A DNA stretch of 64,000 bases, taken from contig JAHEXI010000008.1 of the NCBI GenBank assembly GCA_023252195.1, positions 96,980 to 160,979 of the forward strand. The letters run 5' to 3'. A model generated the notes under the pieces. That model searched no databases and was not told where the DNA came from. It saw only the letters and a program-made list of their open reading frames with translations. The DNA is from Pseudonocardiales bacterium. GTDB taxonomy: Bacteria > Actinomycetota > Actinomycetes > Mycobacteriales > Pseudonocardiaceae. Positions 9,063 to 57,601 of the stretch are shown here, piece by piece. Each line of letters starts with the position of its first letter. Within the stretch, counting starts at the first letter, position 1. The translations under genes were made by a program, and so were the position numbers.

Positions 9063-9126
9063 CTCCCGAGCTCCACAGCAGGGTTGCTCTGGCGGTCTCG
9101 GACAGCTCTGTAGTGGAGTTCGGGAG
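9063..9126. repeat. Family-A 64-bp palindromic element, copy A1
   Basis: CTCCCGAGCTCCACAGCAG...CTCTGTAGTGGAGTTCGGGAG form inverted arms. Same architecture as copies at 37781, 40279, 49128 and 57538. Confidence 0.75.
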
Positions 9127-9128
9127 CT

Positions 9129-10319
9129 GTGGAGCTGTGCAGTGACTGCACCAACTCGTCGGTCAGTGGATTTCGGCGCCACGCGGGTTATCGGGCGGCG
9201 TGGTCGCGAGCACAGCGTCCGAAGCCGACCAAGCTCTCGCGGCTACCAGGGTTGGCTGCGATGCCGCCGTCGGCGGCGGACCTGCCCCGGCGCGCGGCCG
9301 AGTTGGTCGCCAGCCAGTTCGACAAGGTCGCCGCGGCGGCCGAGGGATGTGACGTGCTGGTGGCGACCGGAGTGATGCCGACCGCGGCCAGCACGCGGTC
9401 GGTGGCCGAGAAACTGGGCATCCGCTCCGTGTCCGTGACCTTCCAGCAGCTCACCCTGCCGTCGCCGCACCACCCGCCGCTGGCGTATCCGGGCCGGCCG
9501 TTCCCGCCGGAGGTGACCGACAACCGGGTGCTGTGGGACCTAGACGCCCAGAACATCAACGCGCTGTTCGGTGCGGCGCTCAACACGAACCGGGCGTCGA
9601 TCGGCCTGCCACCGGTGGACAACGTCCGCGACTACGTCATCGGCGACCAGCCGTGGCTGGCGACGGATCCGACCCTGGATCCGTGGCAGGAGACGGCGGA
9701 CCTCGACGTCGTGCAGACCGGCGCGAGGATCCTGCCCGACGTTCGCCCACTCCCGGCTGAGCTGGTGGCGTTCCTGGACGCCGGCACACCACCGGTGTAC
9801 GTGGGCTTCGGCAGCATGGCAATGCAGACCCCGGCACTGCGCGCCCCGAAGGACATCGCCCGGGTGGCCATCGAGGCGATCCGCGCGCAGGGCCGCCGCG
9901 CACTCGTCTCCCGCGGCTGGGCCGACCTGGCCCTGATCGACGACCGGGACGACTGCTTCAGCGTCGGCGAGGTCAACCAGCAGGCACTGTTCACCCGGGT
10001 GGCCGCCGTCGTGCACCACGGCGGCGCGGGCACCACGACGACGGCCACCCGGGCCGGCGCACCTCAGGTGGTGGTACCCCAGGCGGCAGACCAGCCGTAC
10101 TGGGCCGGCCGGGTGGCCGACCTGGGCATCGGCACGGCACACGACGGTCCGACTCCGACCACCGAGTCCCTGTCAGCCGCGCTCAGGACGACCCTGACCC
10201 CCGAGACCCGTGCCCGAGCAACCGCCGTAGCCAGCACGATCCGCACCGACGGAGCAACGGTGGCCGCGACGCTGCTGCTCGACGCGATCAGCCGGGAAAA
10301 GCCGCCAGTGCCCGCGTGA
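9129..10319 (+). pseudogene. 5'-truncated GT1 glycosyltransferase, GtfB/vancomycin-group-like (N-terminal Rossmann half-start missing)
   Basis: From about residue 50 the protein tracks my recollection of GtfB-type GT1 enzymes (FDKVAAAAEGCDVLVATG...SVAEKLGI...IGLPPVDNV...VQTGA.ILPD.RPLP.EL.AFLDAG.PPVY.GFGS...HHGGAGTT...ADQPYWAGRV...). The first roughly 55-70 residues, including the MRVL..GSRGD motif, are absent. They are replaced by repeat A1-derived sequence. Confidence 0.6.
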
Positions 10320-10412
10320 ACCACGCGGGATCGTCGAGCCAGGGAAAGTGCCCGGCGTTCGCCAAAGCGCTAAGGAGGGGGTTGCGCCACGCCGGGAACG
10401 TAGGGTCAAGGC

Positions 10413-11237
10413 ATGCAGATGCCGCGGCTGGTCGCCACCGACGTTGACGGCACCTTGCTGGACCCGACCGACCAGGTTTCTGAGCGTACTCGGGCCGCGG
10501 TGCATCGGGTGGTAGCGGCCGGGGTGCCGTTCGTACTGGTCACCGGTCGGCCGCCGCGGTGGATCCCGCCGATCGTAGAGCAACTTGGCCACGCCGGGCC
10601 GGCGGTGTGCGCCAACGGCGCGGTGCTCTACAACGCTGCGACCGACCAGGTCAGCTACATGGTGACGCTGGATCCGATGCAGCTGCGGGATGCGGCGGAG
10701 GTGATCGCCACCGCGCTGCCGGGCGCGAAGCTTGCGGTCGAGCTGCCCGCCGCAGGCGCCGCGCGCAACGGTGCCGAGCAGTTCCTCGCCGAACCGGGCT
10801 ACACCCACCCCTGGCCGGGCGGGGACTCCGTCGACGCGCCGCGCGATGTGCTGCTCGGCCGACCGGCGATCAAGTTGCTGGTCCGCCAGCCGAATGCCAG
10901 CAGTGACCTGATGGCCGCCGCGGTTCGCGAGCTACTCGGTGCCGCATCAGGGGGCCGCCTCGACGTCACGTACTCCACCGGCTACGGCCTGATCGAGCTC
11001 TCCGCGCCCGGCGTCACCAAGGGCACCGGGCTGGCCCGGCTGGCCGGGCAGCTGGGAGTCGCGCCGGCCGATGTGCTGGCTTTGGGTGACATGCCCAACG
11101 ACCTGTCGATGCTGCGCTGGGCGGGGCACGGAGTGGCCATGGCCAATGCCCATCCCGCCGTGCTCGAGGCCGCCGACGAGATCACTGCGGGTAACTCCGA
11201 GGACGGTCTCGCGATGATACTCGAGAGGTGGTTCTGA
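10413..11237 (+). CDS. Cof-type HAD-IIB family hydrolase (sugar phosphatase-like)
   Basis: LVATDVDGTLLD motif I, VLVTGRP motif II and LGDMPNDLSML motif IV. 274 aa. Confidence 0.85.
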   Translation: MQMPRLVATDVDGTLLDPTDQVSERTRAAVHRVVAAGVPFVLVTGRPPRWIPPIVEQLGHAGPAVCANGAVLYNAATDQVSYMVTLDPMQLRDAAEVIATALPGAKLAVELPAAGAARNGAEQFLAEPGYTHPWPGGDSVDAPRDVLLGRPAIKLLVRQPNASSDLMAAAVRELLGAASGGRLDVTYSTGYGLIELSAPGVTKGTGLARLAGQLGVAPADVLALGDMPNDLSMLRWAGHGVAMANAHPAVLEAADEITAGNSEDGLAMILERWF

Positions 11238-11403
11238 TCCGAGCTAGACGCCTCTAGAGCGGCTCGGCCGGGTCAAATGTGACCTGATTGTGATGAATTA
11301 GGGCGAACTGGTACGAGGGAGCCGGCGAAAGCTAGGCTGCTCCCTTCCACGCGACCGGTAACAGCGCGTGAGATTGAACTCCCACCAGCCGCTTGGAGGT
11401 TTT

Positions 11404-13434: not shown

Positions 13435-13880
13435 GCGGGCCATCGTCGCCATCCGGGCGGTTTCGACACCGCCCAGTGAGCGAGGTCGTTGCTCGGGTCG
13501 TGGTCGCAGCCGGATTGGGCTACGACGCGTATGTCCACTTCGATCTCGCCGGTAATTTCGACGCAAATCGGGCGCTGATCAGCCAGGGCATACTCTTCCG
13601 CGTCGAGGCAGCGGCTGCCATCCTCGCCGCCCTGTTGGTGCTGCTCATCCAGCACCGAGCAGCGGTGTCGTTCGCCGTAGTGATCGCCGGCAGCGCGCTG
13701 GGCGCCGTGCTGCTCTATCGCTATGTCGACCTGGGAGCCCTCGGCCCGCTACCGGACATGTACGAACCAAGCTGGTACCCGGAAAAGACCTACAGCGCCA
13801 TAGTCGAAGCCGCCGCCGTTTTCGCTGCGGCTGCGCTGCTCTTCTCAAGCGATGCAAGGCAGGTGCCCCCGCCCGACTGA
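13431..13880 (+). CDS. Four-helix integral membrane protein, unknown function
   Basis: GTGA overlap with the cupredoxin gene. Four hydrophobic segments. High GC3. Confidence 0.6.
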   Translation: MSGPSSPSGRFRHRPVSEVVARVVVAAGLGYDAYVHFDLAGNFDANRALISQGILFRVEAAAAILAALLVLLIQHRAAVSFAVVIAGSALGAVLLYRYVDLGALGPLPDMYEPSWYPEKTYSAIVEAAAVFAAAALLFSSDARQVPPPD

Positions 13881-13898
13881 CGCCGGGCGGGGGCACCT
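13861..13898. terminator. Bidirectional GC-rich hairpin between convergent genes
   Basis: AGGTGCCCCCGCCCG-actgacgc-CGGGCGGGGGCACCT is a perfect 15-bp stem. The stop codon of the + gene lies in the loop. Confidence 0.6.
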
Positions 13899-13916
13899 GT
13901 GGAAGCGTCTCCGCGC

Positions 13917-31436: not shown

Positions 31437-31450
31437 CGGGGCTGGTGCGT

Positions 31451-34677: not shown

Positions 34678-34720
34678 CGCCCGCAGGCTACCTCCACCCC
34701 GACATGGGGGCATATCGGGG

Positions 34721-37795: not shown

Positions 37796-37844
37796 AGCAG
37801 AGCTGCCAGATCCTCCTCAGACAACTCTGTTGTGGAGTTCGGGA
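37781..37844. repeat. Family-A 64-bp palindromic element, copy A2
   Basis: GTTCCCGAACTCCACAGCAG-26 nt-CTGTTGTGGAGTTCGGGA lies between the helD stop and the Emb paralog 1 start. Confidence 0.85.
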
Positions 37845-37867
37845 TGCTGAGAGTACCGAGAGGCGCG

Positions 37868-40278: not shown

Positions 40279-40335
40279 CAACTCTACAGTTCCCGAACTC
40301 CACAGCTGCAGGCCGAGGGCCTGCCAGATCTCCTC
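40279..40335. repeat. Family-A element, partial copy A3 (left arm and internal segment only)
   Basis: CAACTCTACAGTTCCCGAACTCCACAGCTGCAG..CTGCCAGATCTCCTC shares the internal CTGCCAGATC(C)TCCTC with A2. No right arm was found. Confidence 0.6.
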
Positions 40336-45293: not shown

Positions 45294-46787
45294 GTGATTT
45301 CGGGGTCTGCGGTGGATGACGTCGTCCCGTTCGGTGTGGTCATCGCCATCATCAGCGTGGCTGGGCTGCTGGCGGTGTTGTCGAACCGGGTCAGCGAACG
45401 GATCCGGGTGCCGGCTCCAGCGATCTTCCTGGTAGCCGCCGCGGTTGCTTCGGACCTGGTACCGGCGCTGGGGCGGGTGCCCATTCTCACGGTGCAGCGG
45501 GTGGTCACCGTGATGCTGATCTTGTTGTTGTTCGACGGTGGTATGCACATCGGCTGGCGGCGGTTTCGCGCCGCTGGCGGCGGGGTGTTGTGGATCGGTG
45601 TGGTCGGCACTGTGGTCACCGCGGTGGGGGTGGCGGTGCTGGCGCACCTGGTGTTCGGGTTCGACTGGCGGGCCGGGCTGCTGCTGGGTGTCGCGGTGGC
45701 CCCTACTGACCCGGCCGTGGTGTTCTCGGTGTTGGGCCGCCGGGAGATCTCCGGCCGGTCGGGCACCCTGCTGGAGGGTGAGTCCGGGGTGAACGACCCG
45801 GTCGGTATCGCCGCGATGGCCGCGCTGCTGGCTGCCGGAACCGCCGGTGGCTGGCACGCCGTGGGCGCCGGGGTAGGCGAGTTCGCCCTGGAGATGGTCG
45901 TCGGTGCCGCGATCGGCATCGCGGCCGGGTACGCGTTGTCGGTGGCGATGCGCCGGGTACCACTGCCCAGCGGGGCGCTGTACCCGCTGCGGACCCTGTT
46001 GGGTGCCGGGGCGATCTACGGGCTGGCCAACCTGGCCCACGGGTCGGGGTTTCTCGCCGTGTTCGTCGCCGGAATCCTCGTCGGGGACCTGCGCGCCCCG
46101 TACAAGGCCGACATCGAACGGTTCCACTCGTCACTGGCCAGCTTGGCGGAAATCGTCGCGTTCGCCATGCTCGGCCTGACTGTGTCCCTGACTGGGCTGG
46201 CTCACGGCACCGCCTGGTGGGTCGGTCTGGCCTTGGCGGTGCTGCTGGCCCTGGTGGTGCGCCCGGTGCTGGTCGGGCTGCTCCTGCTGCCCATCAAGAT
46301 CAATAATGGTGAGCGGGTGTTCGTGATGTGGTCCGGGCTCAAAGGCGCGGTGCCTATCCTGCTGGGCACCTACATCCTGTCCGCCGGCGTACCAGGGGCC
46401 GACCGCCTGTACCAGATCGTGGTCGTCGTGGTGGCGTTCTCGGTGATCGTGCAGGGCGGCCTGGTGCCTACCGTGGCCCACCACACGGGAGTGCCCATGC
46501 GGGTCCTGCAACCCGAACCCTGGGCGCTGGGCATGCGTTTCCGCGACGAGCCCACCGGCTTGCACCGCTACGACGTCACCGCCGGCGCTCCCGCGGACGG
46601 CTGCACCATCGCCGACCTCGCGCTGGGCGAGGACACCTGGATCAGCATGATCAACCGGAACGGTGTCCTGGTACCCGTCCGCGGCGGCACCGTGCTGCAG
46701 GCCGGTGACGAGGTGCTGCTGCTGGCCGACCCGGACACCGACACCGACCCGCAGCCGCTGTTCACTCCGCGTCGCTCGACGTCGTGA
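45294..46787 (+). CDS. CPA1-family K+(Na+)/H+ antiporter with C-terminal RCK_C (TrkA-C) domain
   Basis: LLFDGGMH..., APTDPAVVFSVL, LLEGESGVNDPVGI, and C-terminal ...GGTVLQAGDEVLLLA. 497 aa. The stop codon lies within repeat B3. Confidence 0.85.
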   Translation: MISGSAVDDVVPFGVVIAIISVAGLLAVLSNRVSERIRVPAPAIFLVAAAVASDLVPALGRVPILTVQRVVTVMLILLLFDGGMHIGWRRFRAAGGGVLWIGVVGTVVTAVGVAVLAHLVFGFDWRAGLLLGVAVAPTDPAVVFSVLGRREISGRSGTLLEGESGVNDPVGIAAMAALLAAGTAGGWHAVGAGVGEFALEMVVGAAIGIAAGYALSVAMRRVPLPSGALYPLRTLLGAGAIYGLANLAHGSGFLAVFVAGILVGDLRAPYKADIERFHSSLASLAEIVAFAMLGLTVSLTGLAHGTAWWVGLALAVLLALVVRPVLVGLLLLPIKINNGERVFVMWSGLKGAVPILLGTYILSAGVPGADRLYQIVVVVVAFSVIVQGGLVPTVAHHTGVPMRVLQPEPWALGMRFRDEPTGLHRYDVTAGAPADGCTIADLALGEDTWISMINRNGVLVPVRGGTVLQAGDEVLLLADPDTDTDPQPLFTPRRSTS

Positions 46788-46844
46788 ACTCGACAGCACG
46801 GACGTTTCGGCGCCGAAAAATGTCGGTACCGTCGAGTTCACGAC
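46781..46844. repeat. Family-B 64-bp palindromic element, copy B3
   Basis: GTCGTGAACTCGACAGCACGGAC-18 nt-GTCGGTACCGTCGAGTTCACGAC lies between the convergent antiporter and vapC. Confidence 0.85.
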
Positions 46845-46865: not shown

Positions 46866-47246
46866 TTAGCGGATGATCTGGATGGGGATGTCGACGTCGA
46901 GGGCGGCCCAGGCAGTGTGGGCGGTGACCGTGGTCAGGTCCAATCTGGCGGCCAAGGCCAGGCAGCATCGATCGCCCAGAGACAACCCCGCCGCGCGGGT
47001 GCTCGTCCACATGCGCGCGGCGGTGACCGCGTCGGCTTCGGTGAGCGGTTCTACCCGAACCCCGAGGGTGCGCAACCGGCTGGTGGCTCGCCCGGCGTCG
47101 GCGCCATGCTGGTGGAGCTTTTGCCAGGTCTCTGACCAGTTCGCCGCAGACATGACCGCGACGGGGAGCAGCGGGTGCACCACGTTGGCGCCGGGTTCGT
47201 CACGCAGCCACGCCAGCACCGCTGAGGCATCCAACACGACCGTCAC
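46866..47246 (-). CDS. vapC: PIN-domain ribonuclease toxin VapC
   Basis: VVLDASAVLAWL...E...D.. acidic PIN residues. 126 aa. ATGA-type 4-nt overlap with the upstream antitoxin. Confidence 0.85.
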   Translation of the reverse strand: MTVVLDASAVLAWLRDEPGANVVHPLLPVAVMSAANWSETWQKLHQHGADAGRATSRLRTLGVRVEPLTEADAVTAARMWTSTRAAGLSLGDRCCLALAARLDLTTVTAHTAWAALDVDIPIQIIR

Positions 47247-47556: not shown

Positions 47557-50500
47557 TCAGTCGGTGGCGTTTCCGTGGTAGCTCTTGGCGGCGAGGGTGG
47601 GAAGGCGCGTCCAGCCGGCCCTGCGGACCGCGTGGACGTGCAGGTCGACCAGCCCGACGGGGTGGTCGTAGACGACCCGCTCGACCCGGCCCCAGGGCAA
47701 CGTGGGCGGCCCGCTGGGCACCAGCCGGGCGGGCATCCGCACGGCAGTGCCGGAGCGGCTCACCGGCACCTCAGTGCCGCCCCGGTGCAGCTCGAACCCG
47801 AGATCGAGGAAGCCCCGGCCGAAATCCTCGTCGCTAAGCAGCAGCACCTGGGGGGCACGGGCGATGCCATGATCGACGCCGACCTGGTCGAGGCAGGGCA
47901 ACAGCGCCGCGGTGAGCTGGTCGACGTACACCGGCCGGCTGGCGATAAACGTCGTCAGCGGACGCCACGTGGCCAGCCGCGGCTGGCCTACCGCAAGCCA
48001 GCTGTCGGCATCGGTCTCCATCCAGTCGCGGATCACCACCCGCACGCTCGACGGCCGCTGCTTGCCGAGCCGGTCCAGGGCAACGGCTGCTTGGTGCCAC
48101 TGGGTCCTGGGCACGGCCGGGTCCGGCCGCAGCGATGCGCTGCCCGCCACGGCGGGGTTGCGCCCAGCGGCGGTGGCGTACTCCAGGGTCAGCTGCTGGG
48201 CGGCTCGAGCGCCGAGCAGCGGGACCAGCAGGGTGCTGCCACCATCGGGTGGCAGCGCGAACCACGGCGTGACGAGCAAGCCCGCCGGGCTCGTCAGTGA
48301 GCTCGTGTCCGGGTCGCTGCGCAGGTCGGTGTCGACGGCGTCGTGCCAGACCAGCGTGCCCGGATTCGGCGCGGGCACTGGCTCGGGTAACGGCCGGTTC
48401 GCGGCAGCGGCGAACCCACCCTCGGTGATCGCCGATCCGACCGGCACCGGTTGTGCCGGTATGTCGACTAGGACCTGTGCGTAGTCGGCCAGTGAGCACG
48501 GTTGGCCTTGGACCGCCCGAACCGCAGACAGGGCCACCGACCAGCCCGGATACTGCCGCAACGGCGCCCACCAGAAGACCACGATGATCATCACCACCAT
48601 CGCCGTCGAGCCGGTCAGCAACACCGCTCGGTCGGGAGTCAGTGCCGAGTCCCGATCGCGGCGCCGCCGCCACCACATCCATCCGCCTGCGGCCACCGCG
48701 ACCGCCACCCAGACCAGCGGGTTTGCCAGCTGCACGGGGCCCAGCTTCGGGCGCATGCCCACCAGGTCGGGGTGGTCCGCGGACGCGGTGAGGTGGTTGC
48801 CGAAGGGCTGGCCGCGGTCGGAATAGGGCCGCCACAGGTTGGGCCCGGCGAAACTCCAGGACACCGCACCGATCATCAGCGCTGTCCCCACCGTGGCCGC
48901 GAGGACGCTGGCACGATGGCGCCGCAGACCAGCCTGCACCGCGGCCAACAGCGGGGAGCGCAGCAGCGCGGCGGCGAGCAACACCATGGGCGCGGCCGCC
49001 GCCGCCCCGAAGTGGTTGACGAACTTCGTCGGCGTCGGAGCCAGTAGCGCCAAGGCCAACGCCGAGCACCCCGCACTGCTCACCAGCAACCGCCGCACCG
49101 GATCGTCGCGGTCCCCGTTGCCTGACTCTGCGCTTCCCGAACTGCACAGCAGTGCTGTCCGCAGCCGGGTGAACAGCGCTGCTGTGGAGCTCGGGAAGCG
49201 CAGCGCACGTGAGCAGTTCAGAGCGACGACTAGCAGGACGGCGATTGTGAGCACCACAGGGGCTCGGCGGGCCCACTGGCTGGAATCCTCGAAGCTCAGG
49301 ATCGTCTTGTAGTGGACGTTCTCCTGGTACCAGGAGAACGTCTGGTAGTACCACCGGTGCACTGCGGCGGACTCGAGCACGTCGCCGAGCGTCGCGTCGG
49401 CGAATCCCACCAGCACCAGGCTGGTGCTCGCGGCGGCCAGTACCAGGACCGCAGCCACCCGCGCCGCGGCGCGCTGTGCGCGCAGCCACCGCCACAGCCA
49501 CGGCAGGGCCAGCACCAGCGGTGCGATGGCGACCAGCCCGGACGGGGAGACCGACATCGCTAGCGCGGCGGTGGCGGTGGCGGCGGCGAGCGCGCCGACC
49601 GAGCGGCGTCGCCGGGCCAGCTCCGCCAGCAGCAGCGTCGCAGCGGCCAGCAGCACGATCAGCGGTTCGGGACGCAGCGTCATTCCGTAGGGCAGCCACC
49701 ACAGCAGGTAGGCCACCAGCAGCGCCCAGGTAGCCCGGCTGGTGTCCAGCTCGCGACCGAAACCCGCAACGAGCAGCAGGCGCAGCAGCAGCCAGGTGAC
49801 CAGCCCGTAGGCCAGCGGCACCAGCCGCATCCACGCCAGGCCCCACCCGCCGAGCGAACCCCACAGCTGCAGCACGTACTGGCTGGCCACGAAGGGGTTC
49901 TCGGTAACGTTGAACATGTAGATCGCATTGCCGACCGACCCTGAGGCGTTGGCACCGCGGGCCATCTGCATGTACCAGGAGTCGTCGAAGTTCGTCGGAG
50001 CCAGCAGCACCCACATCGCCGAGACGACGACTAGCACGGCGTCAGCGACGTGTAGGCGAAGTCGCGCGGGTGCAGCGGTTATCGGCTGGGCGCCCCACCA
50101 CCGCCAGGCCAACCCGAGCAGCATCAGCAGGGCCGCGGCGCAGGTCACTAGCAGTCCGGTCTTCAGCGCTGTCGGGGTGGATTCATAGCGGGCATCGGTG
50201 TGTAGCGACACCGCCAACCCCGACGCCGCCGGCTGGCCGTCCAGCTCGGTGGTCAGCTCGCTGACCTCCGGTACCTGCACCGACGCAGAGCCGCGTCGCA
50301 GCCCGTCGCGCAGTACCCGCACGCCGCCGGCGTCGGCCAATACCCGGTAGGTACACCCGCCGTCCGGCAGCACCTCGCGCAGCACCGTCCGGCCCGAGGC
50401 GGTCACCTGCACCGTGCCGCCGTGGACCGCGACGACCAGACCCTGGCTGAGCTGGCCCGGCTTGCCGGCGGTGGCGGGCAGGGTGCGCAGCGCGTCGCCG

Positions 50501-50757
50501 CCGCCGCGTTGACGGTCCAGCGCGGACAGCGCGGCGCACGGCACCCGGGCGGTCAGGCTCACCGGTCGGTAGGGCACCAGCGGCAGCACCGTGGAGCGCG
50601 CCGGCTGGCCGGCCGGTGGCCAGCTGACCACCGGGTCCTGGGCGGTCACCGGGGCCAGCAGCACTCCGATCGCCGCGACCAGGGTCAGCGCGGCCAGCCC
50701 GGCGAGCACGCCCGCTCGGGAGGTCACGGAGCGTTGCACGTCGGCGGCCGCAAGCAC
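47557..50757 (-). CDS. Emb-family GT-C arabinosyltransferase, paralog 3, carrying an in-frame repeat-element insertion
   Basis: 1066 aa. Has APTNFDDSWYMQMARGA, PTPTKFVNHF and an intact C-terminal domain. It has about 29 extra residues relative to paralog 2 at the position of repeat A4. Confidence 0.9.
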   Translation of the reverse strand: MLAAADVQRSVTSRAGVLAGLAALTLVAAIGVLLAPVTAQDPVVSWPPAGQPARSTVLPLVPYRPVSLTARVPCAALSALDRQRGGGDALRTLPATAGKPGQLSQGLVVAVHGGTVQVTASGRTVLREVLPDGGCTYRVLADAGGVRVLRDGLRRGSASVQVPEVSELTTELDGQPAASGLAVSLHTDARYESTPTALKTGLLVTCAAALLMLLGLAWRWWGAQPITAAPARLRLHVADAVLVVVSAMWVLLAPTNFDDSWYMQMARGANASGSVGNAIYMFNVTENPFVASQYVLQLWGSLGGWGLAWMRLVPLAYGLVTWLLLRLLLVAGFGRELDTSRATWALLVAYLLWWLPYGMTLRPEPLIVLLAAATLLLAELARRRRSVGALAAATATAALAMSVSPSGLVAIAPLVLALPWLWRWLRAQRAAARVAAVLVLAAASTSLVLVGFADATLGDVLESAAVHRWYYQTFSWYQENVHYKTILSFEDSSQWARRAPVVLTIAVLLVVALNCSRALRFPSSTAALFTRLRTALLCSSGSAESGNGDRDDPVRRLLVSSAGCSALALALLAPTPTKFVNHFGAAAAAPMVLLAAALLRSPLLAAVQAGLRRHRASVLAATVGTALMIGAVSWSFAGPNLWRPYSDRGQPFGNHLTASADHPDLVGMRPKLGPVQLANPLVWVAVAVAAGGWMWWRRRRDRDSALTPDRAVLLTGSTAMVVMIIVVFWWAPLRQYPGWSVALSAVRAVQGQPCSLADYAQVLVDIPAQPVPVGSAITEGGFAAAANRPLPEPVPAPNPGTLVWHDAVDTDLRSDPDTSSLTSPAGLLVTPWFALPPDGGSTLLVPLLGARAAQQLTLEYATAAGRNPAVAGSASLRPDPAVPRTQWHQAAVALDRLGKQRPSSVRVVIRDWMETDADSWLAVGQPRLATWRPLTTFIASRPVYVDQLTAALLPCLDQVGVDHGIARAPQVLLLSDEDFGRGFLDLGFELHRGGTEVPVSRSGTAVRMPARLVPSGPPTLPWGRVERVVYDHPVGLVDLHVHAVRRAGWTRLPTLAAKSYHGNATD
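49128..49203. repeat. Family-A palindromic element, copy A4, located inside the Emb paralog 3 coding sequence
   Basis: CTGCGCTTCCCGAACTGCACAGCAGTGCTG-16 nt-CAGCGCTGCTGTGGAGCTCGGGAAGCGCAG is translated in-frame as LRFPSSTAALFTRLRTALLCSSGSA. Confidence 0.85.
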
Positions 50758-51475: not shown

Positions 51476-54400
51476 TCAACGGCCCAGCTGAGAGATCTCG
51501 GCGGTTTGACCCCCACTGCGTAGCGGTCCTGGAGACCACCAGCCGCTTCGCACGGCGGTGCCGGTCTGCAGCACAGGTGCCTCAGCGTCGGGTACTCGCG
51601 GCTGGATCACCATGAGCTTGCCCCAGTCGGTGTCCCAGTTCTCTTTGAGGTAGGTCGGCACCTCCTGCTGGGTGGCCAGGATCTGCAGCCAGCCGATCGG
51701 GCCACCCGCATCTGCCGCTGACCAGCTCTTGCTGTCGTTGGCCAGCATCTTGTCGGGGAGCAGCCGATATTGGGGTATCTCGGCGATGCCATTGCGGATC
51801 GCGAACGGGCGCACACAGGGGTGCACGAAGCCCACCGGCCAGTCCAAGAACACCGGTGGCGTCGGGGCCACCAGGTCGGTCAGCGAGCTCAGCACCGGTA
51901 CCCGGGGCGCGGAGAACGCGAGCCACCCGTCATCGGTGACGTCGGCGTCGGTGGCGACCAACCGCACGGCGTCCGCCCCGGCAGAGGCCCGACCGGCCAA
52001 TCCGAGGCGGTAGTCCCGCCATCCCGGCCCATCGGCAGTGGCGCGCCCGCCGATCTCCATGTGGTCGACGACGCGGAAGCCGCGGTCGGTGCGGCGGGCG
52101 AACTCGGCGACCAGCGGTGTGGTGGCTGACAGTCGACCCGCGACGGAGACCACCACCGGCGCGGTGCCTTGGCGGGCCGCGGCGGGCAGGGCGTACCAGG
52201 TGGAGCGCAGGATGCCGGTGCCGGGAGTGTCGGGGGAGAAGCTGCTCCAGATCGGGATCTCGGGACCACCGAGCCCGATCGGCGGTTTGTCAACGGGGTT
52301 GCTCCCGTCGTCGCCCGGCTTGGGTATGCGGTCGCCCCTGGCACCCTGATTGTCCGCCCGGTCGTTGGTCCCGGAGCCGGTGAGCTGGGAGGGCGGACTG
52401 GTTGGCAGTGCCTGCTCTAGCGGGGACCGGTTGGTTTCGAAGCCGCGTTGCAGCGGGATGTCGGCGAGCAGCGTTGTGCGCAACGGGCGCAGCGCACCGG
52501 CACGCCGGTCAGCCTCGACCAACACCGCATCGGTGAGGTTGCAACTGTGCCCGGTTATCTCAGCGAAGTTGGCTGCGCCCATGCTGTAGCCGTGGCGCTG
52601 CTTGACTATCGCCTTGGCCATGGCGCCGACCTCGGCGAGCACCAGCAGGCCGCAGAACACCGCCAGCGGGGCTGACCCGATCAGCAGGGCGCGGCGCCGC
52701 CCATTGCGCCGTTGCGGCTGTGGTGGCCCAGGTGGCGGCACAGCGCCCGGCTCGTGCCGCAATCCCTCGATCACCGCGATCAGGCCAGCCAGCACGGCGC
52801 CCACGATCAGCAGCGTGCTGGCTTGGATGCCATGCACCGAGGGGGGCTTGTCGTACCAGGGCACCCCGTACTGCGATACGTACCACGGTGCGTTGGGTCC
52901 GGTCGCCGACATCGCCAGGATCACCAGCAGGCCCGACAGGAACCACCACCGGTTGCGCGCTGAGCGCAGCACGCTGGAGCTGGCGGTCAGCGCGGTCAGC
53001 GCGGCCAGCGCGGCACCGATCGAGGCGAACGCCCCGAAGTGGTGCGTCCACTTCGTCGGGGTCAACGCCAGCAGCACCAGCGACGCTCCCGCGGTGCCGA
53101 TCAGCCGGCGGCTCGGGCCCAGGCCGGCGCCCGGGATGCGGCCCCGGCGCAACAGCACCACCCCGGTAGTGCCCAGGCACAGCAGCAACAGCAGGACCGG
53201 GAAGCGACGGGCCAAGGCACCGTCGGGCAGGTTGCTGAACAGCTCCTCGTAGCGCATCGGCTCCTGGAACCAGGACAGGTTGGGACCGATCTCGGTGCGG
53301 ATCCGGGAGGCTTCCAGCACCCCGGCCAGCGTCTGGTCGGCGAAGCACACCACGAGCACCAGCAGCCCGGCACCGAGGATCGGCCCAAGCACCGCGGCGC
53401 GGCCGGAAACCGTGATGTGTTGGCGCACCAGCCGCACCAGCGGCCGCAGCGACACCAGGAACGGTGCGATCGCGATGAAACCGGTCGGTGTCGCGGCGAC
53501 GGTGAACGCTGCCGCCAGTAGCGCCAACGCCAGCGGCAGCACCCGGCGGGTGGCTACCGCGCGCTCCACTCCGCACAGCGCGAGCAGCGAACCGATGGCC
53601 ACCACCGGCTCCAGGCGCAGCCCGTTGTTGTAGGGCAGCCAGAAGGCCAGGAACACCGCGGCGGCGGCCCATCCGGCGGCGGCGCTGCGGCGGACCTCCC
53701 GACCCAGTCGCGGCATCACCTCACGGCTGATCAGCATCCAGCTCACCCCGCCCATCGCGAAGGAGGGCAGCCGCAGCCACGGTGGCACCGTGCTGATCTG
53801 AGACCACAGCGCATACAGCTCGTAGGGCCAACTGAACGGTGCCTCGGGGGCGTTGAACCATCGGTAGTAGTTGCCGATGTAGCCCATCTCCGCACGAGTG
53901 CGGATCATCGTCAGGATGTAGCCGTCGTCGGAGGTGATCCCGCCGATGACCACCCAGACGGCGAGCACCGCGAGTACCGCGGCGTCCCGTCCGGTGGGTC
54001 GCCACCAGCCCGAGGGAAGTACTCGGGGAGCCCGGCGCCCGATCCGCCGGTCCAGTCGATGCATCAGGATCAGACTGACCAGCACGGCCAGTACGGCGGC
54101 CGCGATGGCAGCGAGCTTGATCGGGTGCGGGACGGATTGGAACCGGGTGTCCGCGGTGATCCGCACTGCCAGCCCACGGACCGGGTCGCGTTGGTCGATC
54201 AGGGCCGAGTAGATACCGGTCACCTGCGGCCGGACGTCCTGGTCGACCTTGACGAACCGCAGGGCGCCAGCCGACGCCGTGGTGCCCCGGGCGTCCGAGG
54301 AGACCTGGATCATGCACTGCCGCGGAGACGGCGGGATGGTGCTCAACAGGACGTTGCCCAGCGCCTGGCCCCGGCTGATCAGGGTCAACTTCCCGGCGTC

Positions 54401-54799
54401 GACCTGCAGCACCATCCCGACCGCGGCACCGTCGGTCGACCCGGGCGGGGTGGTGGCCAGCAGCGAGGCAGGCTGCGGCGACCGCGCATCCAACGAGACT
54501 GCCGCAGCGCACGGGATCGTGGCGGTCATGTTCTGCGGCTGGTAGGTGACCAGCGGCGCGTTGACCGGCGCGAGGTCTCCCGAGCGTGGCCAGGTGATCA
54601 CGGTGGTGTCCTGGATCACCGGCAGCAGCGGCACCGCAATGGCGAGCAGAGCTCCGAGCAGGCCGAAGAATGCCGCGGCGAACCCGAGTAGCCGGGAGCC
54701 GCGGTTGCGCTTGTTGCCAGTGTCGGCGGTCGGATCGGTAGCGTCGCCGCCAGTACTCGAGCGGCGGCGCGAGATCTCGATGTGCCCAGAGGTCAGCAC
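51476..54799 (-). CDS. Emb-family GT-C arabinosyltransferase, paralog 4 (longest; EmbC-like length)
   Basis: 1107 aa. Has GGITSDDGYILTMIRTRA, LTPTKWTHHF and a C-terminal CBM-like domain. Confidence 0.9.
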   Translation of the reverse strand: MLTSGHIEISRRRSSTGGDATDPTADTGNKRNRGSRLLGFAAAFFGLLGALLAIAVPLLPVIQDTTVITWPRSGDLAPVNAPLVTYQPQNMTATIPCAAAVSLDARSPQPASLLATTPPGSTDGAAVGMVLQVDAGKLTLISRGQALGNVLLSTIPPSPRQCMIQVSSDARGTTASAGALRFVKVDQDVRPQVTGIYSALIDQRDPVRGLAVRITADTRFQSVPHPIKLAAIAAAVLAVLVSLILMHRLDRRIGRRAPRVLPSGWWRPTGRDAAVLAVLAVWVVIGGITSDDGYILTMIRTRAEMGYIGNYYRWFNAPEAPFSWPYELYALWSQISTVPPWLRLPSFAMGGVSWMLISREVMPRLGREVRRSAAAGWAAAAVFLAFWLPYNNGLRLEPVVAIGSLLALCGVERAVATRRVLPLALALLAAAFTVAATPTGFIAIAPFLVSLRPLVRLVRQHITVSGRAAVLGPILGAGLLVLVVCFADQTLAGVLEASRIRTEIGPNLSWFQEPMRYEELFSNLPDGALARRFPVLLLLLCLGTTGVVLLRRGRIPGAGLGPSRRLIGTAGASLVLLALTPTKWTHHFGAFASIGAALAALTALTASSSVLRSARNRWWFLSGLLVILAMSATGPNAPWYVSQYGVPWYDKPPSVHGIQASTLLIVGAVLAGLIAVIEGLRHEPGAVPPPGPPQPQRRNGRRRALLIGSAPLAVFCGLLVLAEVGAMAKAIVKQRHGYSMGAANFAEITGHSCNLTDAVLVEADRRAGALRPLRTTLLADIPLQRGFETNRSPLEQALPTSPPSQLTGSGTNDRADNQGARGDRIPKPGDDGSNPVDKPPIGLGGPEIPIWSSFSPDTPGTGILRSTWYALPAAARQGTAPVVVSVAGRLSATTPLVAEFARRTDRGFRVVDHMEIGGRATADGPGWRDYRLGLAGRASAGADAVRLVATDADVTDDGWLAFSAPRVPVLSSLTDLVAPTPPVFLDWPVGFVHPCVRPFAIRNGIAEIPQYRLLPDKMLANDSKSWSAADAGGPIGWLQILATQQEVPTYLKENWDTDWGKLMVIQPRVPDAEAPVLQTGTAVRSGWWSPGPLRSGGQTAEISQLGR

Positions 54800-55772: not shown

Positions 55773-56572
55773 CTGGTTGCTTCCGCGACGCGGGTGAGGG
55801 CTTCTGGGCTGAGGTTCTCGTAGGGGTCTTTGCCTTTGTAATGGGACAGCACTGCGCGCAGGTCGCCCTGTTCCCGGATCTGTCCGTGGTCGAGCCACAA
55901 CCCGGAGCTGCACAGCTCGATGAGGAACTCGTCGGAGTGTGAGGCGAACACCAGAATTCCGGATCGCTCAACCAGCGCGGTGAGCCGCTCGCGGGCCTTC
56001 TCCAAGAACGCCGCGTCCACCGCGCCGATACCCTCGTCGAGCAGCAGGATCTCCGGGTCGATGCTGGTCACAACCCCTAGCGCGAGCCGGACCCGCATGC
56101 CGGTCGAGTAGGTGCGCAGCGGCATCGACAGGTAGTCGCCCAGTTCGCTGAACTCGGCGATCTCCTCGGTGCGGGCCTCCATTTGCTTGCGGGTCATCCC
56201 CAGGAACAGCCCGCGGATGATGATGTTCTCGTAGCCGGAGATCTCCGGGTCCATGCCGACGCCCAGGTCGAACACCGGGGCGACCTTCCCGACGATCCGG
56301 GAGACGCCCATGGTCGGCTCGTAGATCCCGGACAGCAGCCGCAGCAGGGTCGACTTGCCCGCCCCATTGTGCCCGATCAGACCGACCCGGTCGCCGTGGC
56401 GCAGCGACAGGGTGATGTCCCGCAGCGCCTCGATGACCGGCACCTTGGCGTCCATCCCGATCTTGCCGCCGGCCCGTCCTACGGTGCCCAGCAAGGCCTT
56501 CTTCAACGACCGGGTCTTCGCATCGAAGATCGGGAAGTTGACGCAGGCACCGCGCACGTCGATGGAGACCAT
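55769..56572 (-). CDS. rfbE: ABC transporter ATP-binding protein (Wzt/RfbE-type polysaccharide export)
   Basis: Walker A GHNGAGKST, signature YSTGMRVRL and Walker B ILLLDE. 267 aa. Confidence 0.9.
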   Translation of the reverse strand: MVSIDVRGACVNFPIFDAKTRSLKKALLGTVGRAGGKIGMDAKVPVIEALRDITLSLRHGDRVGLIGHNGAGKSTLLRLLSGIYEPTMGVSRIVGKVAPVFDLGVGMDPEISGYENIIIRGLFLGMTRKQMEARTEEIAEFSELGDYLSMPLRTYSTGMRVRLALGVVTSIDPEILLLDEGIGAVDAAFLEKARERLTALVERSGILVFASHSDEFLIELCSSGLWLDHGQIREQGDLRAVLSHYKGKDPYENLSPEALTRVAEATR

Positions 56573-56595
56573 GATCTTTTAACACCCAGTCCTGA

Positions 56596-57456
56596 TCATA
56601 CCCAGTAGGAGACTCGGGCCCGGTAGTTGCGCAGGATCAGTAGTGCTGCCGCCCACCCCACCACAGTGATGGCCAAGGTCACCACCCAGTGCCGGGGTTC
56701 GAACGACTGACCGATCATCGGGCGTCGCAGGATCTCGACGAAGTGCAGGAACGGGTTGAGCTCGGCCAGCCGGGCCCGCTCCGCTCCCGGACCGCCCTTG
56801 CTGATCAGATCCTGGTAGTTCCAGACGATCGGCGTCATGAAGAACATCAGGGTGACGACGCTGGTGGTCACCGGGGGGATGTCGCGGTAACGGGTCGCAA
56901 TGATCCCGATCAGGATCGCCACCCAGGCCCCGTTGAGCACGATCACCGCCAATGCCGGCAGCGCCATCAGGCTGCCCCACCCCAGGTGCGTTCGGAAAAT
57001 CACCACCAGGGCCGCCCAGACCAGCACGTTATGCCCGAAGAACAGCAGTTGTCGCCAGACCAGCCGGAACACATGCACACTCAGCGGCGCGGGCAGATGC
57101 TTGATCAGGCCCTCGTTGCGGATGAAGACCTCGGCGCCTTCGTTGATGCAGCTCGCCATGAACTGCCAGATAATCAGCCCGACGGCCAGGTAGGGCAGGA
57201 AGAACGCGATCGGTTGACCGAACAGTGCCGCATAGAGCAGCCCCATACCCAGCGCCTGGACTCCCAGGCTGATCGTGATCCACAACGGTCCGATCACCGA
57301 GCGCCGGTAACCCTGCCTGATGTCCTGCCAGCCCAGATGGCCCCACAGCCGACGTTGCTGCCAGCCGGCCCGCAGATCACCGAATGCCCGAGACCAGCTC
57401 CGGGATGACAGCGCCCGGTCCGCGGTGATCTCCGGTGCCGCTGCGGTGTACTGCAT
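56596..57456 (-). CDS. rfbD: ABC-2 type transporter permease (Wzm/RfbD-type)
   Basis: ATG 57456 gives 286 aa with 6 TM helices (..YRRSVIGPLWITISL..). The longer ORF (to 58050) reads through repeat A5 and is rejected. Confidence 0.85.
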   Translation of the reverse strand: MQYTAAAPEITADRALSSRSWSRAFGDLRAGWQQRRLWGHLGWQDIRQGYRRSVIGPLWITISLGVQALGMGLLYAALFGQPIAFFLPYLAVGLIIWQFMASCINEGAEVFIRNEGLIKHLPAPLSVHVFRLVWRQLLFFGHNVLVWAALVVIFRTHLGWGSLMALPALAVIVLNGAWVAILIGIIATRYRDIPPVTTSVVTLMFFMTPIVWNYQDLISKGGPGAERARLAELNPFLHFVEILRRPMIGQSFEPRHWVVTLAITVVGWAAALLILRNYRARVSYWV

Positions 57457-57537
57457 GGTCCGCGAGGGTACCCGTGCGGTCTCCGGACCCCCGGCCTGCG
57501 GGTGCGCCAGCCGCTGCCCGCGCCCGGTCCACCAAGC

Positions 57538-57601
57538 TTCCCGAACTCCACAGCGGAGCTGTCCGACGTTGATCAAACAGCGCTGCTGTGGAGTTCGGGA
57601 C
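57538..57601. repeat. Family-A 64-bp palindromic element, copy A5
   Basis: CTTCCCGAACTCCACAGCGGAGCTGTCC-11 nt-ACAGCGCTGCTGTGGAGTTCGGGAC lies 82 nt upstream of the rfbD start. Confidence 0.85.

Follow-up and report, generated by a model that had tools for sequence, protein, structure and literature searches.

A 64,000-nucleotide stretch of Pseudonocardiales DNA (the window) carries five copies of a palindromic repeat, here called family A, and raises the question of what these repeats are and what moves them. Our preferred reading, to which we assign a probability of roughly 0.6, is that family A is a REP/MITE-like family of selfish hairpins of ~82 bp, and that its partner is a PD-(D/E)XK nuclease, which would mobilise it, rather than a RAYT transposase.

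The family A repeat and its copies in the window

All five predicted sites are present, as four full copies and one half copy. Allowing up to two mismatches, the arm motif CCCGARCTSCACAGC has 12 matches in the window, approximately 8-fold above chance: over 100 dinucleotide shuffles the mean was 1.48 and the highest count 5, and none reached 12. The arms are therefore not chance similarities. A repeat search of the window recovers the inverted arms of A4 (49128–49203; 31 nt, 90% complementary), A2 (37783–37844; 28 nt, 86%) and A5 (57539–57600; 24 nt, 92%). An nhmmer profile built from 31 family A copies matches the four full copies with E-values of 1e-20 to 8e-18 and gives one partial match at 3e-4. 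The conserved unit is ~82 bp rather than the 64–76 bp originally estimated, and has the consensus RCNCT-nnnn-YT-CCCGAACTCCACAGCAGNGCTGTYC-loop-GRACAGCNCTGCTGTGGAGTTCGGG-AR-nnnn-AGNGY. It is almost wholly stem, with a short loop between two ~36-nt inverted arms; the outer GCNCT and inner AGNGC pentamers of the arms show no covariation. Folded as single strands, the four full copies reach energies between -24 and -38 kcal/mol, with z scores against shuffles between -3.1 and -6.9. Both proposed loop subtypes hold, with CTGCCAGATC(C)TCCTC common to A2 and A3, and GCTGTCCG...AACAGCGCTGCTG common to A4 and A5.

The copies occupy diverse positions. A1 (9053–9136) lies where a PCMT-like methyltransferase gene (7881–9047) ends and an EryCIII-like glycosyltransferase gene (9129–10319) starts, both named from Pfam. 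It matches the profile at E 8e-18 and folds at -24.4 kcal/mol (z -3.1); an orthologous copy is present in L003, relative to which the window has a ~3-kb indel 31 bp away. A2 (37772–37854, z -5.4) is flanked by the stop codon of a UvrD-like helicase gene (37868–40198, minus strand) and by the start of a paralog of the Emb arabinosyltransferases (34721–37795, minus strand). A3 (40279–40335) is truncated to the left arm and an A2-like loop, lacks the right arm, matches the profile only in part (40281–40317, E 3e-4) and does not fold significantly (z -1.7 against shuffles). Its position, with the UvrD-like gene on one side and an MFS transporter gene on the other, is variable, and in L023 is occupied by ~950 bp with an HTH_17 ORF; a comparable half copy occurs in L113. 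A4 (49125–49207, minus strand), a full nhmmer match, has the most stable hairpin (-38.1 kcal/mol, z -6.9). A5 (57530–57616, z -5.5) comprises a copy (nhmmer 57530–57610) followed by a 16-nt local duplication not present in L012. An ABC-2 permease gene lies ~80 nt downstream, and A5 sits at one edge of a ~4-kb accessory island (57523–61518) that is absent in L038.

Family A and the CGTGAACTCGACAG palindromes of the window, here called family B, belong to a single superfamily, the members of which share a GAACTC(C/G)ACAG box, a fixed geometry and covarying stems. The box sits 32 nt from its inverted partner, and the inner and outer stems vary between subfamilies with complementarity kept. Among 104 distinct copies, pair 10–51 is CG in 62, GC in 37 and AT in 2 (97% paired against 52% expected), and pairs 2–59, 3–58, 17–44, 20–41 and 21–40 show similar covariation, far above the column-shuffle expectation. 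The box pattern retrieves 76 metagenome loci, comprising subfamilies A, B, C and D and their hybrids, although the search pattern itself accounts for part of the box's conservation between subfamilies. Family B in the window has the same geometry as family A. B2 (46781–46844, z -2.3) lies between a convergent pair, a Na+/H+ exchanger gene, whose TGA stop falls inside the palindrome, and a PIN toxin gene. B3 (61384–61449, z -7.1) marks the other edge of the accessory island. B1 and two isolated left arms flank a nuclease gene that is described below.

Distribution, gain and loss of the repeats

Family A is not confined to the window. A strict two-arm pattern has 35 matching loci, every one of them in a set of seven uncultured Pseudonocardiaceae/Pseudonocardiales MAGs, with a modest 9–18 copies in each of the best-sampled MAGs; family A is also multi-copy in soil metagenomes. 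The family is thus specific to an uncultured Pseudonocardiaceae clade, and the superfamily extends more widely in actinobacteria. The genes neighbouring the copies are ordinary host genes.

Related genomes differ in whether an orthologous site carries an element. At the A2 site both the window and L023 have a copy, whereas L037 has none and L040 is different. At the A5 site the window and L012 have a copy, L038–L040 have none and L041 has a family B element instead. The B2 site is empty in L045 and L038 and holds a half copy in L037. This evidence is comparative, and most of it comes from contigs of MAGs and metagenomes, where repeats can give rise to chimeras. Copies at unrelated loci share near-identical 60-nt sequences, which, together with presence and absence at orthologous sites, indicates copying rather than convergence. 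The repeats are real, structured and multi-copy, and have been gained and lost at orthologous sites.

The original prediction placed the repeats mostly between genes; A4 is instead inserted in-frame within a coding gene. Its host is an Emb-like arabinosyltransferase paralog (47557–50757, minus strand; Pfam Arabinose_trans, Arabino_trans_N and Arabino_trans_C), the ORF of which is uninterrupted across A4 as judged from a paralog alignment and the ortholog set. The insertion is translated as ALRFPSSTAALFTRLRTALLCSSGSAE and falls within a loop between transmembrane segments. A4 is present in 12 of 13 orthologs at ≥81% identity and in none at ≤76%, and has been retained through ~19% protein divergence. 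In the L036 ortholog exactly 75 nt are missing, in-frame, and the filled L030 has TGCA...TGCA at the flanks; this clean indel appears to result from secondary deletion across the TGCA microhomologies. An HpnG-like PNP_UDP_1 gene of a related MAG carries another in-frame insertion, which uses the same reading frame as A4. These two coding insertions (75–87 nt) sit in functional-looking host genes and show that the palindromes are tolerated in-frame. Several copies, A4 among them, are old and vertically inherited, which, like the modest copy number, counts against the preferred reading.

Association of the palindromes with DUF559 nuclease genes

The window was originally said to hold no transposase, which is literally true, yet it does contain a candidate partner gene for the sister family B. 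This DUF559 / REase_MTES_1575 endonuclease gene (31619–32509, plus strand; assigned from Pfam) lies between ubiA and dprE2. Upstream, family B is represented by two left arms, directly oriented (31450–31531, boxes at 31456 and 31508), the second ~90 nt from the start codon. Downstream, the TGA stop of the gene falls within the CGTGAAC box of B1 (32501–32569; -28.8 kcal/mol, z -7.4), and an orthologous arrangement is seen in L127–L130.

The N-terminal part of the protein matches AbiEi in PADLOC (residues 23–155, E 6e-11) and the C-terminal part is a DUF559/Vsr-like nuclease domain (Pfam residues 221–287). In an AlphaFold2 model (pLDDT 91.7), the best whole-chain structural match is Rv2827c (1zel; probability 1.0), and the predicted nuclease domain is closest to the Vsr-like homing endonuclease I-Bth0305I, superposing on its catalytic domain (3r3p) with a TM score of 0.74–0.75. 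The model thus describes an AbiEi-like winged-helix DNA-binding part joined to a Vsr-like PD-(D/E)XK nuclease, with activity and specificity both predicted. No AbiEii toxin gene adjoins it. AbiEi-type proteins bind inverted repeats.

Palindromes are specifically tied to DUF559 genes. All seven distinct variants in the Pseudonocardiaceae data (the window/P0245 orthologs, P0275, P0288, P0341, P0343, P0323 and L055), five of which were chosen by protein homology alone, have a superfamily palindrome overlapping the stop codon or within 25 nt of it, against a background in which 8 of 81 ORFs have a box close to their stop. They are spread over five different genomic sites. A full palindrome of the same subfamily also lies upstream in five of the seven; in the remaining cases the window has its two arms, and L123 has none within 230 nt. 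The resulting gene-bearing unit of 0.95–1.1 kb reads palindrome, short leader, DUF559 gene, palindrome. The protein clades track the palindrome subfamilies, and the unit at the ubiA–dprE2 intergenic site is B-type, C-like or A-type depending on the related genome. The five family A copies of the window are solo, and no A-type DUF559 gene is found in its 64 kb. A rare A10–T51 stem variant is confined to the Emb copies of L037 and L041 and to the palindromes flanking the DUF559 gene of L131, on the same contig as L037, which argues for homogenisation. The protein has 655 homologs, many on 1.1–1.5-kb contigs. In Tsukamurella tyrosinosolvens, DUF559 homologs with 32–34% identity are bracketed by their own 65–78-nt palindromes; one of these palindrome families has solo copies elsewhere in the genome, 1–8 nt from the stop codons of convergent genes. 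Tsukamurella is a cultured organism with the same gene–palindrome arrangement and solo copies.

Judged from sequence and genomic arrangement, a DUF559 nuclease would mobilise the palindromes as follows. The protein would bind the box through its DNA-binding part and cut at or near the hairpin or cruciform. Repair templated by another element, in a homing-like gene conversion, or recombination between palindromes, would then spread, homogenise or delete elements. Once placed after stop codons, the hairpins may double as terminators or mRNA stabilisers. Alternatively, the palindromes beside a DUF559 gene could serve that gene as operator and terminator, and not be substrates for mobilisation.

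Alternative explanations and known systems

The REP/MITE-like reading of the original prediction survives as far as the dispersed palindromic family, site presence and absence, half copies and the 75-nt loss are concerned; its RAYT-type partner is not supported. The rival that we take most seriously, although we consider it unlikely, is that the ~1-kb DUF559 unit inserts and that recombination between its flanks removes the gene, leaving solo palindromes as scars, much like solo LTRs, with the 82-bp element immobile alone. The flanking palindromes are indeed direct repeats 0.95–1.1 kb apart, half and hybrid copies exist, different units swap at one site, and the many homologs on 1.1–1.5-kb contigs are expected of repeat-bounded units. 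However, each in-frame insertion would then require a 1-kb disruption followed by exact, frame-restoring loss, and solo copies are far commoner (~66 copies of family A, compared with 4 flanking a gene). Somewhat less probable still is that the host has selected the hairpins as intrinsic terminators or mRNA-stabilising stem-loops, so that they are alike through function rather than mobility. They are very stable, and many begin <10 nt from a stop codon, often of convergent genes (L008, L014, L015, L028, L034 and L035), as do the Tsukamurella copies. Against this, no T-run follows the stem, no Rfam family matches the hairpins, copies also lie upstream of genes (A1, A5 and L032) and within coding sequence (A4 and L022), and the near-identical copies at unrelated, variably occupied sites are not accounted for.

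The small, dispersed and polymorphic element with its two ~36-nt inverted arms also resembles a classical MITE. Its parent would be an insertion sequence elsewhere in the genome that shares its terminal inverted repeats and whose DDE transposase moves it. We regard this as improbable: the suggested check for a target-site duplication detected none at any offset for lengths of 2 to 8 nt (nor could an insertion footprint be derived), no transposase-like ORF recurs among the 1088 ORFs of the fetched loci, the neighbours are host genes, and the gene bracketed by arms encodes a PD-(D/E)XK nuclease. An operator function, which would make the palindromes a regulon of the AbiEi-like DUF559 protein rather than a repeat family, fits its DNA-binding part and the palindromes upstream of its own gene. 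It is nonetheless very unlikely, since most solo sites lie at gene 3′ ends, between convergent genes or in coding sequence rather than at promoters, and sites are gained and lost between close relatives. Least probable of all is that the repeats are REP/REPINs whose mobilising RAYT (an HUH tyrosine transposase) is encoded outside the sampled DNA. The lifestyle fits, as discussed below, but the arms are not REP-like hairpins, given that the GCNCT/AGNGC pentamers do not covary, a GTAG-type head is absent, and the flanked gene is not a Y1/HUH protein. The suggested RAYT and IS200/IS605 partners were not found in these incomplete genomes.

Among known systems, proteobacterial REP/REPIN–RAYT families share the short palindromes, extragenic bias, lineage-specific subfamilies and a subfamily tied to one repeat-flanked gene, with most copies gene-less. 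They differ in having an HUH/Y1 transposase rather than an AbiEi-like and Vsr-like nuclease as partner, a doublet of 20–40-nt REPs rather than one long hairpin with a ~36-bp stem, a GTAG head, and hundreds rather than tens of copies. Bacterial MITEs (Correia/NEMIS, ERIC, RUP and BOX) are likewise small, non-coding, hairpin-capable, dispersed, strain-polymorphic and near gene ends, whereas our elements are nearly all stem and have yielded no target-site duplication or parent DDE insertion sequence. Rickettsia palindromic elements lie in-frame in protein-coding genes and are translated (review PMC10969869); A4 resembles them as a translated extra loop in an open host gene retained across species. 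They are, however, unrelated in sequence and host phylum, much longer (~150 against ~82 bp), known from dozens of coding insertions against two here, and without an identified partner gene.

Integron cassettes also pair one ORF with one imperfect 60–80-nt palindrome (attC), and appear as inserted units between two direct-orientation palindromes; the ends xxxGAAC...GTTCxxx resemble RYYYAAC...GTTRRRY. The core departs from the attC consensus at one position, however, the ORF is always a nuclease, and there are no arrays, attI or IntI integrase. Vsr-like (EDxHD) homing endonucleases such as I-Bth0305I share the nuclease fold and the selfish-looking, free-standing genes at variable genome places. 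I-Bth0305I is found within a phage gene, in a group I intron, and acts on the allele that lacks the intron (PMC3239194, PMC2677866), whereas DUF559 genes lie between other genes, encode an AbiEi-like DNA-binding part as well, and have flanking palindromes of a kind that is also found without the gene. AbiEi antitoxins and Rv2827c provide the best whole-chain match, but the AbiEi match is limited to the N-terminal half, and the C-terminal region carries the nuclease domain. Given the arrangement of genes and palindromes, a DUF559 endonuclease may be what spreads the palindromes.

The family A palindrome and its relatives

All five repeat sites of the original prediction read as described in the window sequence, as four full copies of family A (A1, 9053-9136; A2, 37772-37854; A4, 49125-49207; A5, 57530-57616 including a 16-nt local duplication) and one half copy (A3, 40279-40335). 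The window has a G+C content of about 69%, and the arm motif CCCGARCTSCACAGC matches it 12 times with up to 2 mismatches, compared with a mean of 1.48 and a maximum of 5 in dinucleotide-preserving shuffles. A repeat search of the window recovered the palindromes at 49128-49203, 37783-37844 and 57539-57600. Single-strand folding of the four full copies gives -24 to -38 kcal/mol, with z scores of -3.1 to -6.9 against shuffles; the fold of the truncated copy at 40279-40335 is not significant on the same comparison. Scans of the window with Rfam (gathering thresholds) and for tRNA gave no matches.

To define the extent of the element, 31 strict copies, drawn from the window and from related genomes, were aligned. 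The conserved unit of about 82 bp reads RCNCT-nnnn-YT-CCCGAACTCCACAGCAGNGCTGTYC-(~10-nt loop)-GRACAGCNCTGCTGTGGAGTTCGGG-AR-nnnn-AGNGY, with inverted arms of about 36 nt in which two variable 4-nt blocks form an internal loop of the hairpin. Most copies carry a T.G wobble at stem position 24/37 on one strand (C.A on the other), and orienting copies by this T24.G37 pair gives most of them a common polarity. Common descent is the best explanation of an asymmetry shared in this way. No consistent target-site duplication was found at any offset for k = 2-8 in the 31 copies (the best excess identity was 0.19, for a 2-mer), and mutual information between flank positions is at noise level. A T-run 3' of the stem is absent at every copy inspected. 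Degenerate extra copies of the arm core lie directly before A3 (CAACTCTACAG, 40279-40290), directly after A1 (CTGTGGAGCTGTG, 9125-9141) and directly after the palindrome at L123, a related-genome locus (cAGTAGAGTTGA), and suggest local duplication of the arm.

Family B is a sister set of palindromes (CGTGAACTCGACAGC...; B1, 32501-32569; B2, 46781-46844; B3, 61384-61449) with geometry identical to that of family A and 11 of the first 14 arm bases in common. A metagenome scan for GAACTCSACAG-N28-32-CTGTSGAGTTC, a pattern that itself fixes the box conserved in the resulting set, returned 76 loci. These fall into several subfamilies, namely A (CCC-box-CAGAGCTGT), B (CGT-box-ACCGACGTTT), C (GCC/CAC-box-CAGCGGGG, on contigs of 70-75% G+C) and D (GAC-box-AAMTGC), and also include hybrids between subfamilies. 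Compensatory stem changes are found across 104 distinct copies: pair 10-51 is CG in 62, GC in 37 and AT in 2 (97% paired vs 52% expected), pair 20-41 occurs as four pair types (88% vs 48% expected), and pairs 1-60, 2-59 and 3-58 are 95-97% paired, outer-triplet hybrids being rare.

Among 185,579 species-representative genomes, the strict two-arm pattern matched 35 contigs, all in uncultured Pseudonocardiaceae/Pseudonocardiales MAGs, a set that does not include the window genome. SMAG_U1456 has 18 family A loci, GZL_FP_2_bin.41 has 9, SMAG_U5637 has 3, RYN_112 has 2, and BP_311, RRmetagenome_bin8 and S3_bin.46 have one each. The best-sampled of these incomplete genomes thus hold 9-18 strict copies, most of them extragenic. 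Contigs of SMAG_U1456 are 95-97% identical to the window, and four of its 18 copies are orthologous to window copies (L003 to A1, L012 to A5, L023 to A2 and L030 to A4). The box pattern had 0 matches in viral contigs, and family A was not found in viral contigs or plasmid records.

Genomic positions, gain and loss

The window is an arabinogalactan-type cell-wall region with four Emb-like arabinosyltransferase paralogs, ubiA, dprE1/dprE2, GtrA, a GT2 glycosyltransferase and an ABC-2/ABC exporter. Family A copies lie singly, kilobases apart, among these core cell-wall genes. A1 separates a methyltransferase gene from a glycosyltransferase gene, and A2 a UvrD-like helicase gene from an Emb paralog; A3 is at a divergent intergenic spot, and A5 about 80 nt upstream of an ABC-2 permease gene. 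At related loci, many copies start less than 10 nt from a stop codon, and the genes on either side are often convergent; several copies lie 5' of genes or within ORFs. The copies had been described as mostly intergenic, and most are indeed extragenic, but A4 lies within the Emb paralog at 47557-50757 (-).

The four Emb-like paralogs (34721-37795, 42101-45130, 47557-50757 and 51476-54799, all on the minus strand) occupy 20 kb. The second and third are 55% identical to each other, and the Pfam Emb model scores the fourth far above the other three. The UvrD-like helicase gene (37868-40198, minus strand; 776 aa) matches Pfam helicase models only in part and gives weak PADLOC hits to GajB and NERD+UvrD, and its position between two Emb paralogs is kept in related contigs. 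An unrelated palindrome with 27-nt arms, 89% complementary (CCCGACATGGGGGCATATCGGGGCTAT / ATAGCCCCGACATGTCCCCATATCGGG), spans the dprE1-Emb paralog junction at 34698-34761; an exact degenerate one-arm pattern found no further copy of it in 140 fetched loci. At 13860-13899, just past an ORF end, a perfect 16-bp G+C-rich inverted repeat with an 8-nt loop (CAGGTGCCCCCGCCCG / CGGGCGGGGGCACCTG) looks like a terminator of the ordinary type, unrelated to family A.

Comparison with related contigs reveals both filled and empty sites. At the A2 site, the window and L023 carry the element, and L037 is empty, with the flanks joined directly; this filled/empty pair has no target-site duplication. At the A5 site, the window and L012 carry the element, L038-L040 are empty, and L041 has a family B element at the same spot. 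The B2 site has no element in L045 and only a half copy in L037, and L113 retains only the right arm where L002 holds a full copy. For four of the five window copies, an indel or island border relative to close relatives is found no more than about 100 bp away. An indel of about 3 kb lies 31 bp from A1, L023 has 950 bp with an HTH_17 ORF at the A3 spot, and A5 and B3 bound an island of about 4 kb (57523-61518) that is not in L038.

This island is differently occupied in L039-L041. Its three co-directional minus-strand genes include two with BrxC/BrxD-like ATPase matches (one also a PADLOC BrxD match) and one with a weak DUF3375 match, and it may be a defence module. A leader of about 100 nt upstream of the ABC-2 permease start (GCGCACCCGCAGGCCGGGGGTCC...GGGTACCCTCGCGGACCATG; 57400-57525 and the orthologous stretches of L012 and L038-L041) is strongly conserved in all related contigs, and the DNA further upstream differs in each. 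The leader matches no Rfam family and may be a regulatory RNA or operator. A PIN-domain toxin gene (46866-47246, minus strand) adjoins B2; at this position a PIN gene is also present in L039, with an 80-aa upstream ORF, and in L045, and none is present in L037 or L038.

Where family A copies lie within coding genes, the reading frame can remain open. The Emb ORF at 47557-50757 continues across A4, and its product has about 29 extra residues at the insert relative to its paralogs, in a variable-length loop between hydrophobic segments. Among 120 Emb homologs, the element peptide ALR(L/F)PNSTAALFTRLRTALLxSSG is present in 12 of 13 with at least 81% identity and in none of about 90 full-length homologs with at most 76% identity. 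The sole exception among the 13, P0005 (90% identity, GZL_FP_2_bin.41), lacks exactly 75 nt (25 codons), a stretch bordered by TGCA...TGCA in the filled ortholog L030. P0005 nests among filled orthologs, so we read the gap as a secondary in-frame loss, via excision or palindrome-stimulated slippage. For L036, whose Emb ortholog has the 75-nt gap, a reading as a pre-insertion empty site was rejected on account of this nesting.

A second in-frame insertion is found in L022 (SMAG_U1456), where a family A element lies in an HpnG-like PNP_UDP_1 gene and is read in the same frame as in the Emb paralog. The orthologs P0121 and P0122 carry the element, P0123 has a partial deletion of it, and P0124, P0128-P0130, P0133, P0136 and P0153 have degenerate versions; most other HpnG-like orthologs are without it. 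In L001 (SQS_PSY) and L021 (CN_hydrolase), the ORF crosses the element in another frame and ends just past it, so that the element supplies a C-terminal tail. The repeats are structured, are copied, gained and lost, and are tolerated in ORFs.

Palindromes bracketing DUF559 genes

At the related locus L055, two family A copies 1069 nt apart enclose a 327-aa ORF that is 54% identical to the window ORF at 31619-32509 (+), a DUF559/REase_MTES_1575 protein by Pfam. The window gene, located between ubiA and dprE2, has two family B arms upstream (31450-31531) and its TGA stop within a full family B palindrome. Further homologs were chosen by protein similarity alone and their flanks read afterwards. 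P0245 (88% identical to the window ORF) occupies the orthologous ubiA-dprE2 site and has a B palindrome over its stop. P0275 (79%), at a cytochrome b / CrcB locus, has a full B-like palindrome about 40 nt before its ATG and an arm over the stop. Two further homologs lie at ubiA-dprE2: P0288 (72%), with two CCGTGAACTCGACA palindromes, and P0341 (56%), on the contig that holds L037, with two full A palindromes. P0343 (56%), at a WD40 / redoxin locus, has a palindrome with a compensated box (GAGTTCGACAG...CTGTCGAACTC) 25 nt after the stop, and P0323 (55%), at a ThiF locus, is flanked by a pair of palindromes from yet another subfamily (GCATGAACGTGACACCAGTCTGG), of which the second overlaps the stop.

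With P0245 and its window ortholog counted as one, an element lies at the stop in 7/7 distinct gene variants at 5 genomic sites; among ordinary ORFs, the background is 8/81 with a box close to the stop codon. In five of the seven variants, a full palindrome from their own subfamily is also present upstream; of the other two, the window gene has its two upstream arms and L123 has no element within 230 nt. The protein clades follow the palindrome subfamilies in the sequences compared: the window protein, P0245, P0275 and P0288 (68-88% identical) have CGTGAAC-type palindromes, P0343, P0341 and L055 (81-82% identical) have A/E-type palindromes, and P0323 stands alone with a type F palindrome. The repeats are specifically linked to DUF559 genes, with subfamily matching protein clade. 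The ubiA-dprE2 intergenic site holds three different units between flanking genes that are about 90% identical between genomes, which indicates replacement and not slow divergence. Many DUF559 homologs lie on contigs of 1.1-1.5 kb, as expected of repeat-bounded multi-copy units. Phage records contained no full-length DUF559 homolog. In the window (31535-31575), L127 and L123, the stretch from the upstream palindrome to the start codon of the DUF559 gene contains a repeated motif (CCTGTGGATGG ... GTGTGGATRG); since the motif is kept between protein clades 55% identical, it may be a promoter or second binding site.

The same layout holds across two actinobacterial orders. The cultured strain Tsukamurella tyrosinosolvens NCTC13231 has two DUF559 homologs (32-34% identity), both with their own 65-78-nt palindromes on both sides in direct orientation, of sequence unrelated to families A and B. 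Solo copies of one of these palindromes are present in seven further records of the genome; each of the three inspected separates convergent genes, at 1-8 nt from a stop codon, and none has a DUF559 gene close by.

The stem variant A10-T51 is rare, being confined to the Emb-embedded copies of L037 and L041 and to the A palindromes flanking the DUF559 gene L131, which lies 12 kb from the L037 Emb copy on the same contig. The Emb-embedded copy is vertically inherited, and the sharing of this paired change with gene-flanking copies suggests, from few cases, within-genome gene conversion or co-evolution.

The window DUF559 protein matches PADLOC AbiEi models at residues 23-155 (E 6e-11) and Pfam DUF559 and MTES_1575 at its C-terminus. 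Its AlphaFold2 model is confident (pLDDT 91.7), and the best PDB match of the model is Rv2827c, an AbiEi-type DNA-binding protein (1zel, probability 1.0). Foldseek aligns it with the catalytic domain of the Vsr-like homing endonuclease I-Bth0305I (3r3p) at TM 0.74-0.75 and with the DUF559 protein NGO0050 (3hrl) at TM 0.69. The catalytic domain is of the Vsr-type PD-(D/E)XK kind, and residues D224, E235, G238 and H241 are invariant in 63 homologs. Together, the AbiEi and DUF559/Vsr-like matches describe a predicted site-specific DNA-binding module fused to a nuclease domain. The nearest solved structural relative of the nuclease domain is I-Bth0305I, a selfish homing enzyme (PMC3239194).

Relation to known repeats and proposed mechanism

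We regard family A as a new repeat family of REP/MITE type. REP and REPIN sequences are imperfect palindromes of 20-40 nt, usually with a GTAG-type head and often arranged as inverted doublets, whereas family A is a single hairpin of about 82 bp with no GTAG head in the 31-copy alignment. A REPIN reading, in which each arm forms its own hairpin, was rejected because the centres of the GCNCT and AGNGC pentamers that would pair within an arm do not covary. REP/REPIN elements are mainly extragenic and of high copy number; the best-sampled, incomplete MAGs here have 9-18 strict copies of family A, most of them extragenic. The gene flanked in REP-RAYT systems encodes an HUH/Y1 (IS200/IS605-like) transposase, and a partner of this RAYT or IS200/IS605 type had been suggested for family A; the palindrome-flanked gene encodes an AbiEi-like module with a Vsr-like nuclease (DUF559/REase_MTES_1575) instead. 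Like MITEs, family A is short (<300 bp), non-coding and bounded by terminal inverted repeats, but MITEs have a target-site duplication at each copy and a parent IS that shares their ends and encodes a transposase. All-against-all clustering of 1088 ORFs from fetched loci gave no recurrent parent transposase, only orthologous host-gene sets, and element-neighbouring ORFs scanned with Pfam had no transposase domain, the neighbours being ordinary genes such as LigD, NeuB, DUF202 and zf-UBP. The bracketed gene is the DUF559 gene.

Rickettsia palindromic elements insert in frame into coding sequence and preserve the ORF (PMC10969869), as family A does in the Emb paralog and the HpnG-like gene. The hosts are Rickettsiales in one case and Pseudonocardiaceae in the other, and the likeness is one of behaviour; family A has no Rfam match. 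Integron attC core sites read RYYYAAC ... GTTRRRY, and the palindrome ends CCCGAAC...GTTCGGG (A) and CGTGAAC...GTTCACG (B) depart from this at the fourth position. Integrons have cassette arrays with intI and attI, whereas family A copies are solitary; no integrase was found in the neighbourhoods scanned. An integron-like reading was rejected on these grounds (no arrays, no integrase, a different core) and on the rarity of outer-triplet hybrids. Intrinsic terminators combine a GC-rich hairpin with a T/U run at the 3' end; the missing T-run argues against a canonical terminator role for family A, some copies of which are 5' of genes, and a putative role of inserted hairpins as terminators or stabilisers is plausible. 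Genes of Vsr-like/EDxHD homing endonucleases lie in an intron, an intein or their own recognition site, and their products cleave the empty allele; the DUF559 genes are intergenic and palindrome-bracketed.

The most far-reaching reading, at a probability of about 0.4, is a previously unrecognised actinobacterial class of mobile element in which an autonomous unit of about 1 kb (a DUF559 gene with its own 65-82-bp palindrome) would coexist with a non-autonomous solo palindrome, and the nuclease would recognise the palindrome and drive its copying, homogenisation and loss. The DUF559 protein would recognise the box and hairpin and cut there, and repair or recombination between palindromes would then spread, homogenise or delete elements. 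Mobility could take two forms. The solo element might move in trans, as in REP-RAYT, or only the 1-kb unit might move and leave solo copies as scars. The in-frame insertions in coding genes speak against an origin of all solo copies by scarring. In the literature, a full-text search with the arm sequence gave only unrelated eukaryotic primer or siRNA matches, and within the library searched, work on Pseudonocardiaceae and actinobacterial palindromic repeats, MITEs, RAYT and DUF559 describes neither the family A sequence, nor any Pseudonocardiaceae repeat family, nor a link between DUF559 and palindromes. A 2024 MITE review makes no mention of Actinobacteria (PMC10969869).

If this reading is true, the unit would be a functional analogue of REP-RAYT built on a different nuclease fold, and a widespread 'domain of unknown function', DUF559, would gain a role. 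A sequence-specific nuclease with a defined hairpin target of about 80 bp may also interest tool builders. If the partnership is real, the DUF559/'very-short-patch-repair-like endonuclease' genes, which Actinobacteria commonly carry in multiple copies, would acquire a concrete function open to testing, and REP-like systems would have arisen with a nuclease unrelated to RAYTs. The palindromes would mark structural variation, which is relevant to the assembly and comparison of genomes in this clade, and the clade would join Rickettsia as a second bacterial lineage with palindromic selfish DNA translated as part of proteins, an Emb paralog among them.
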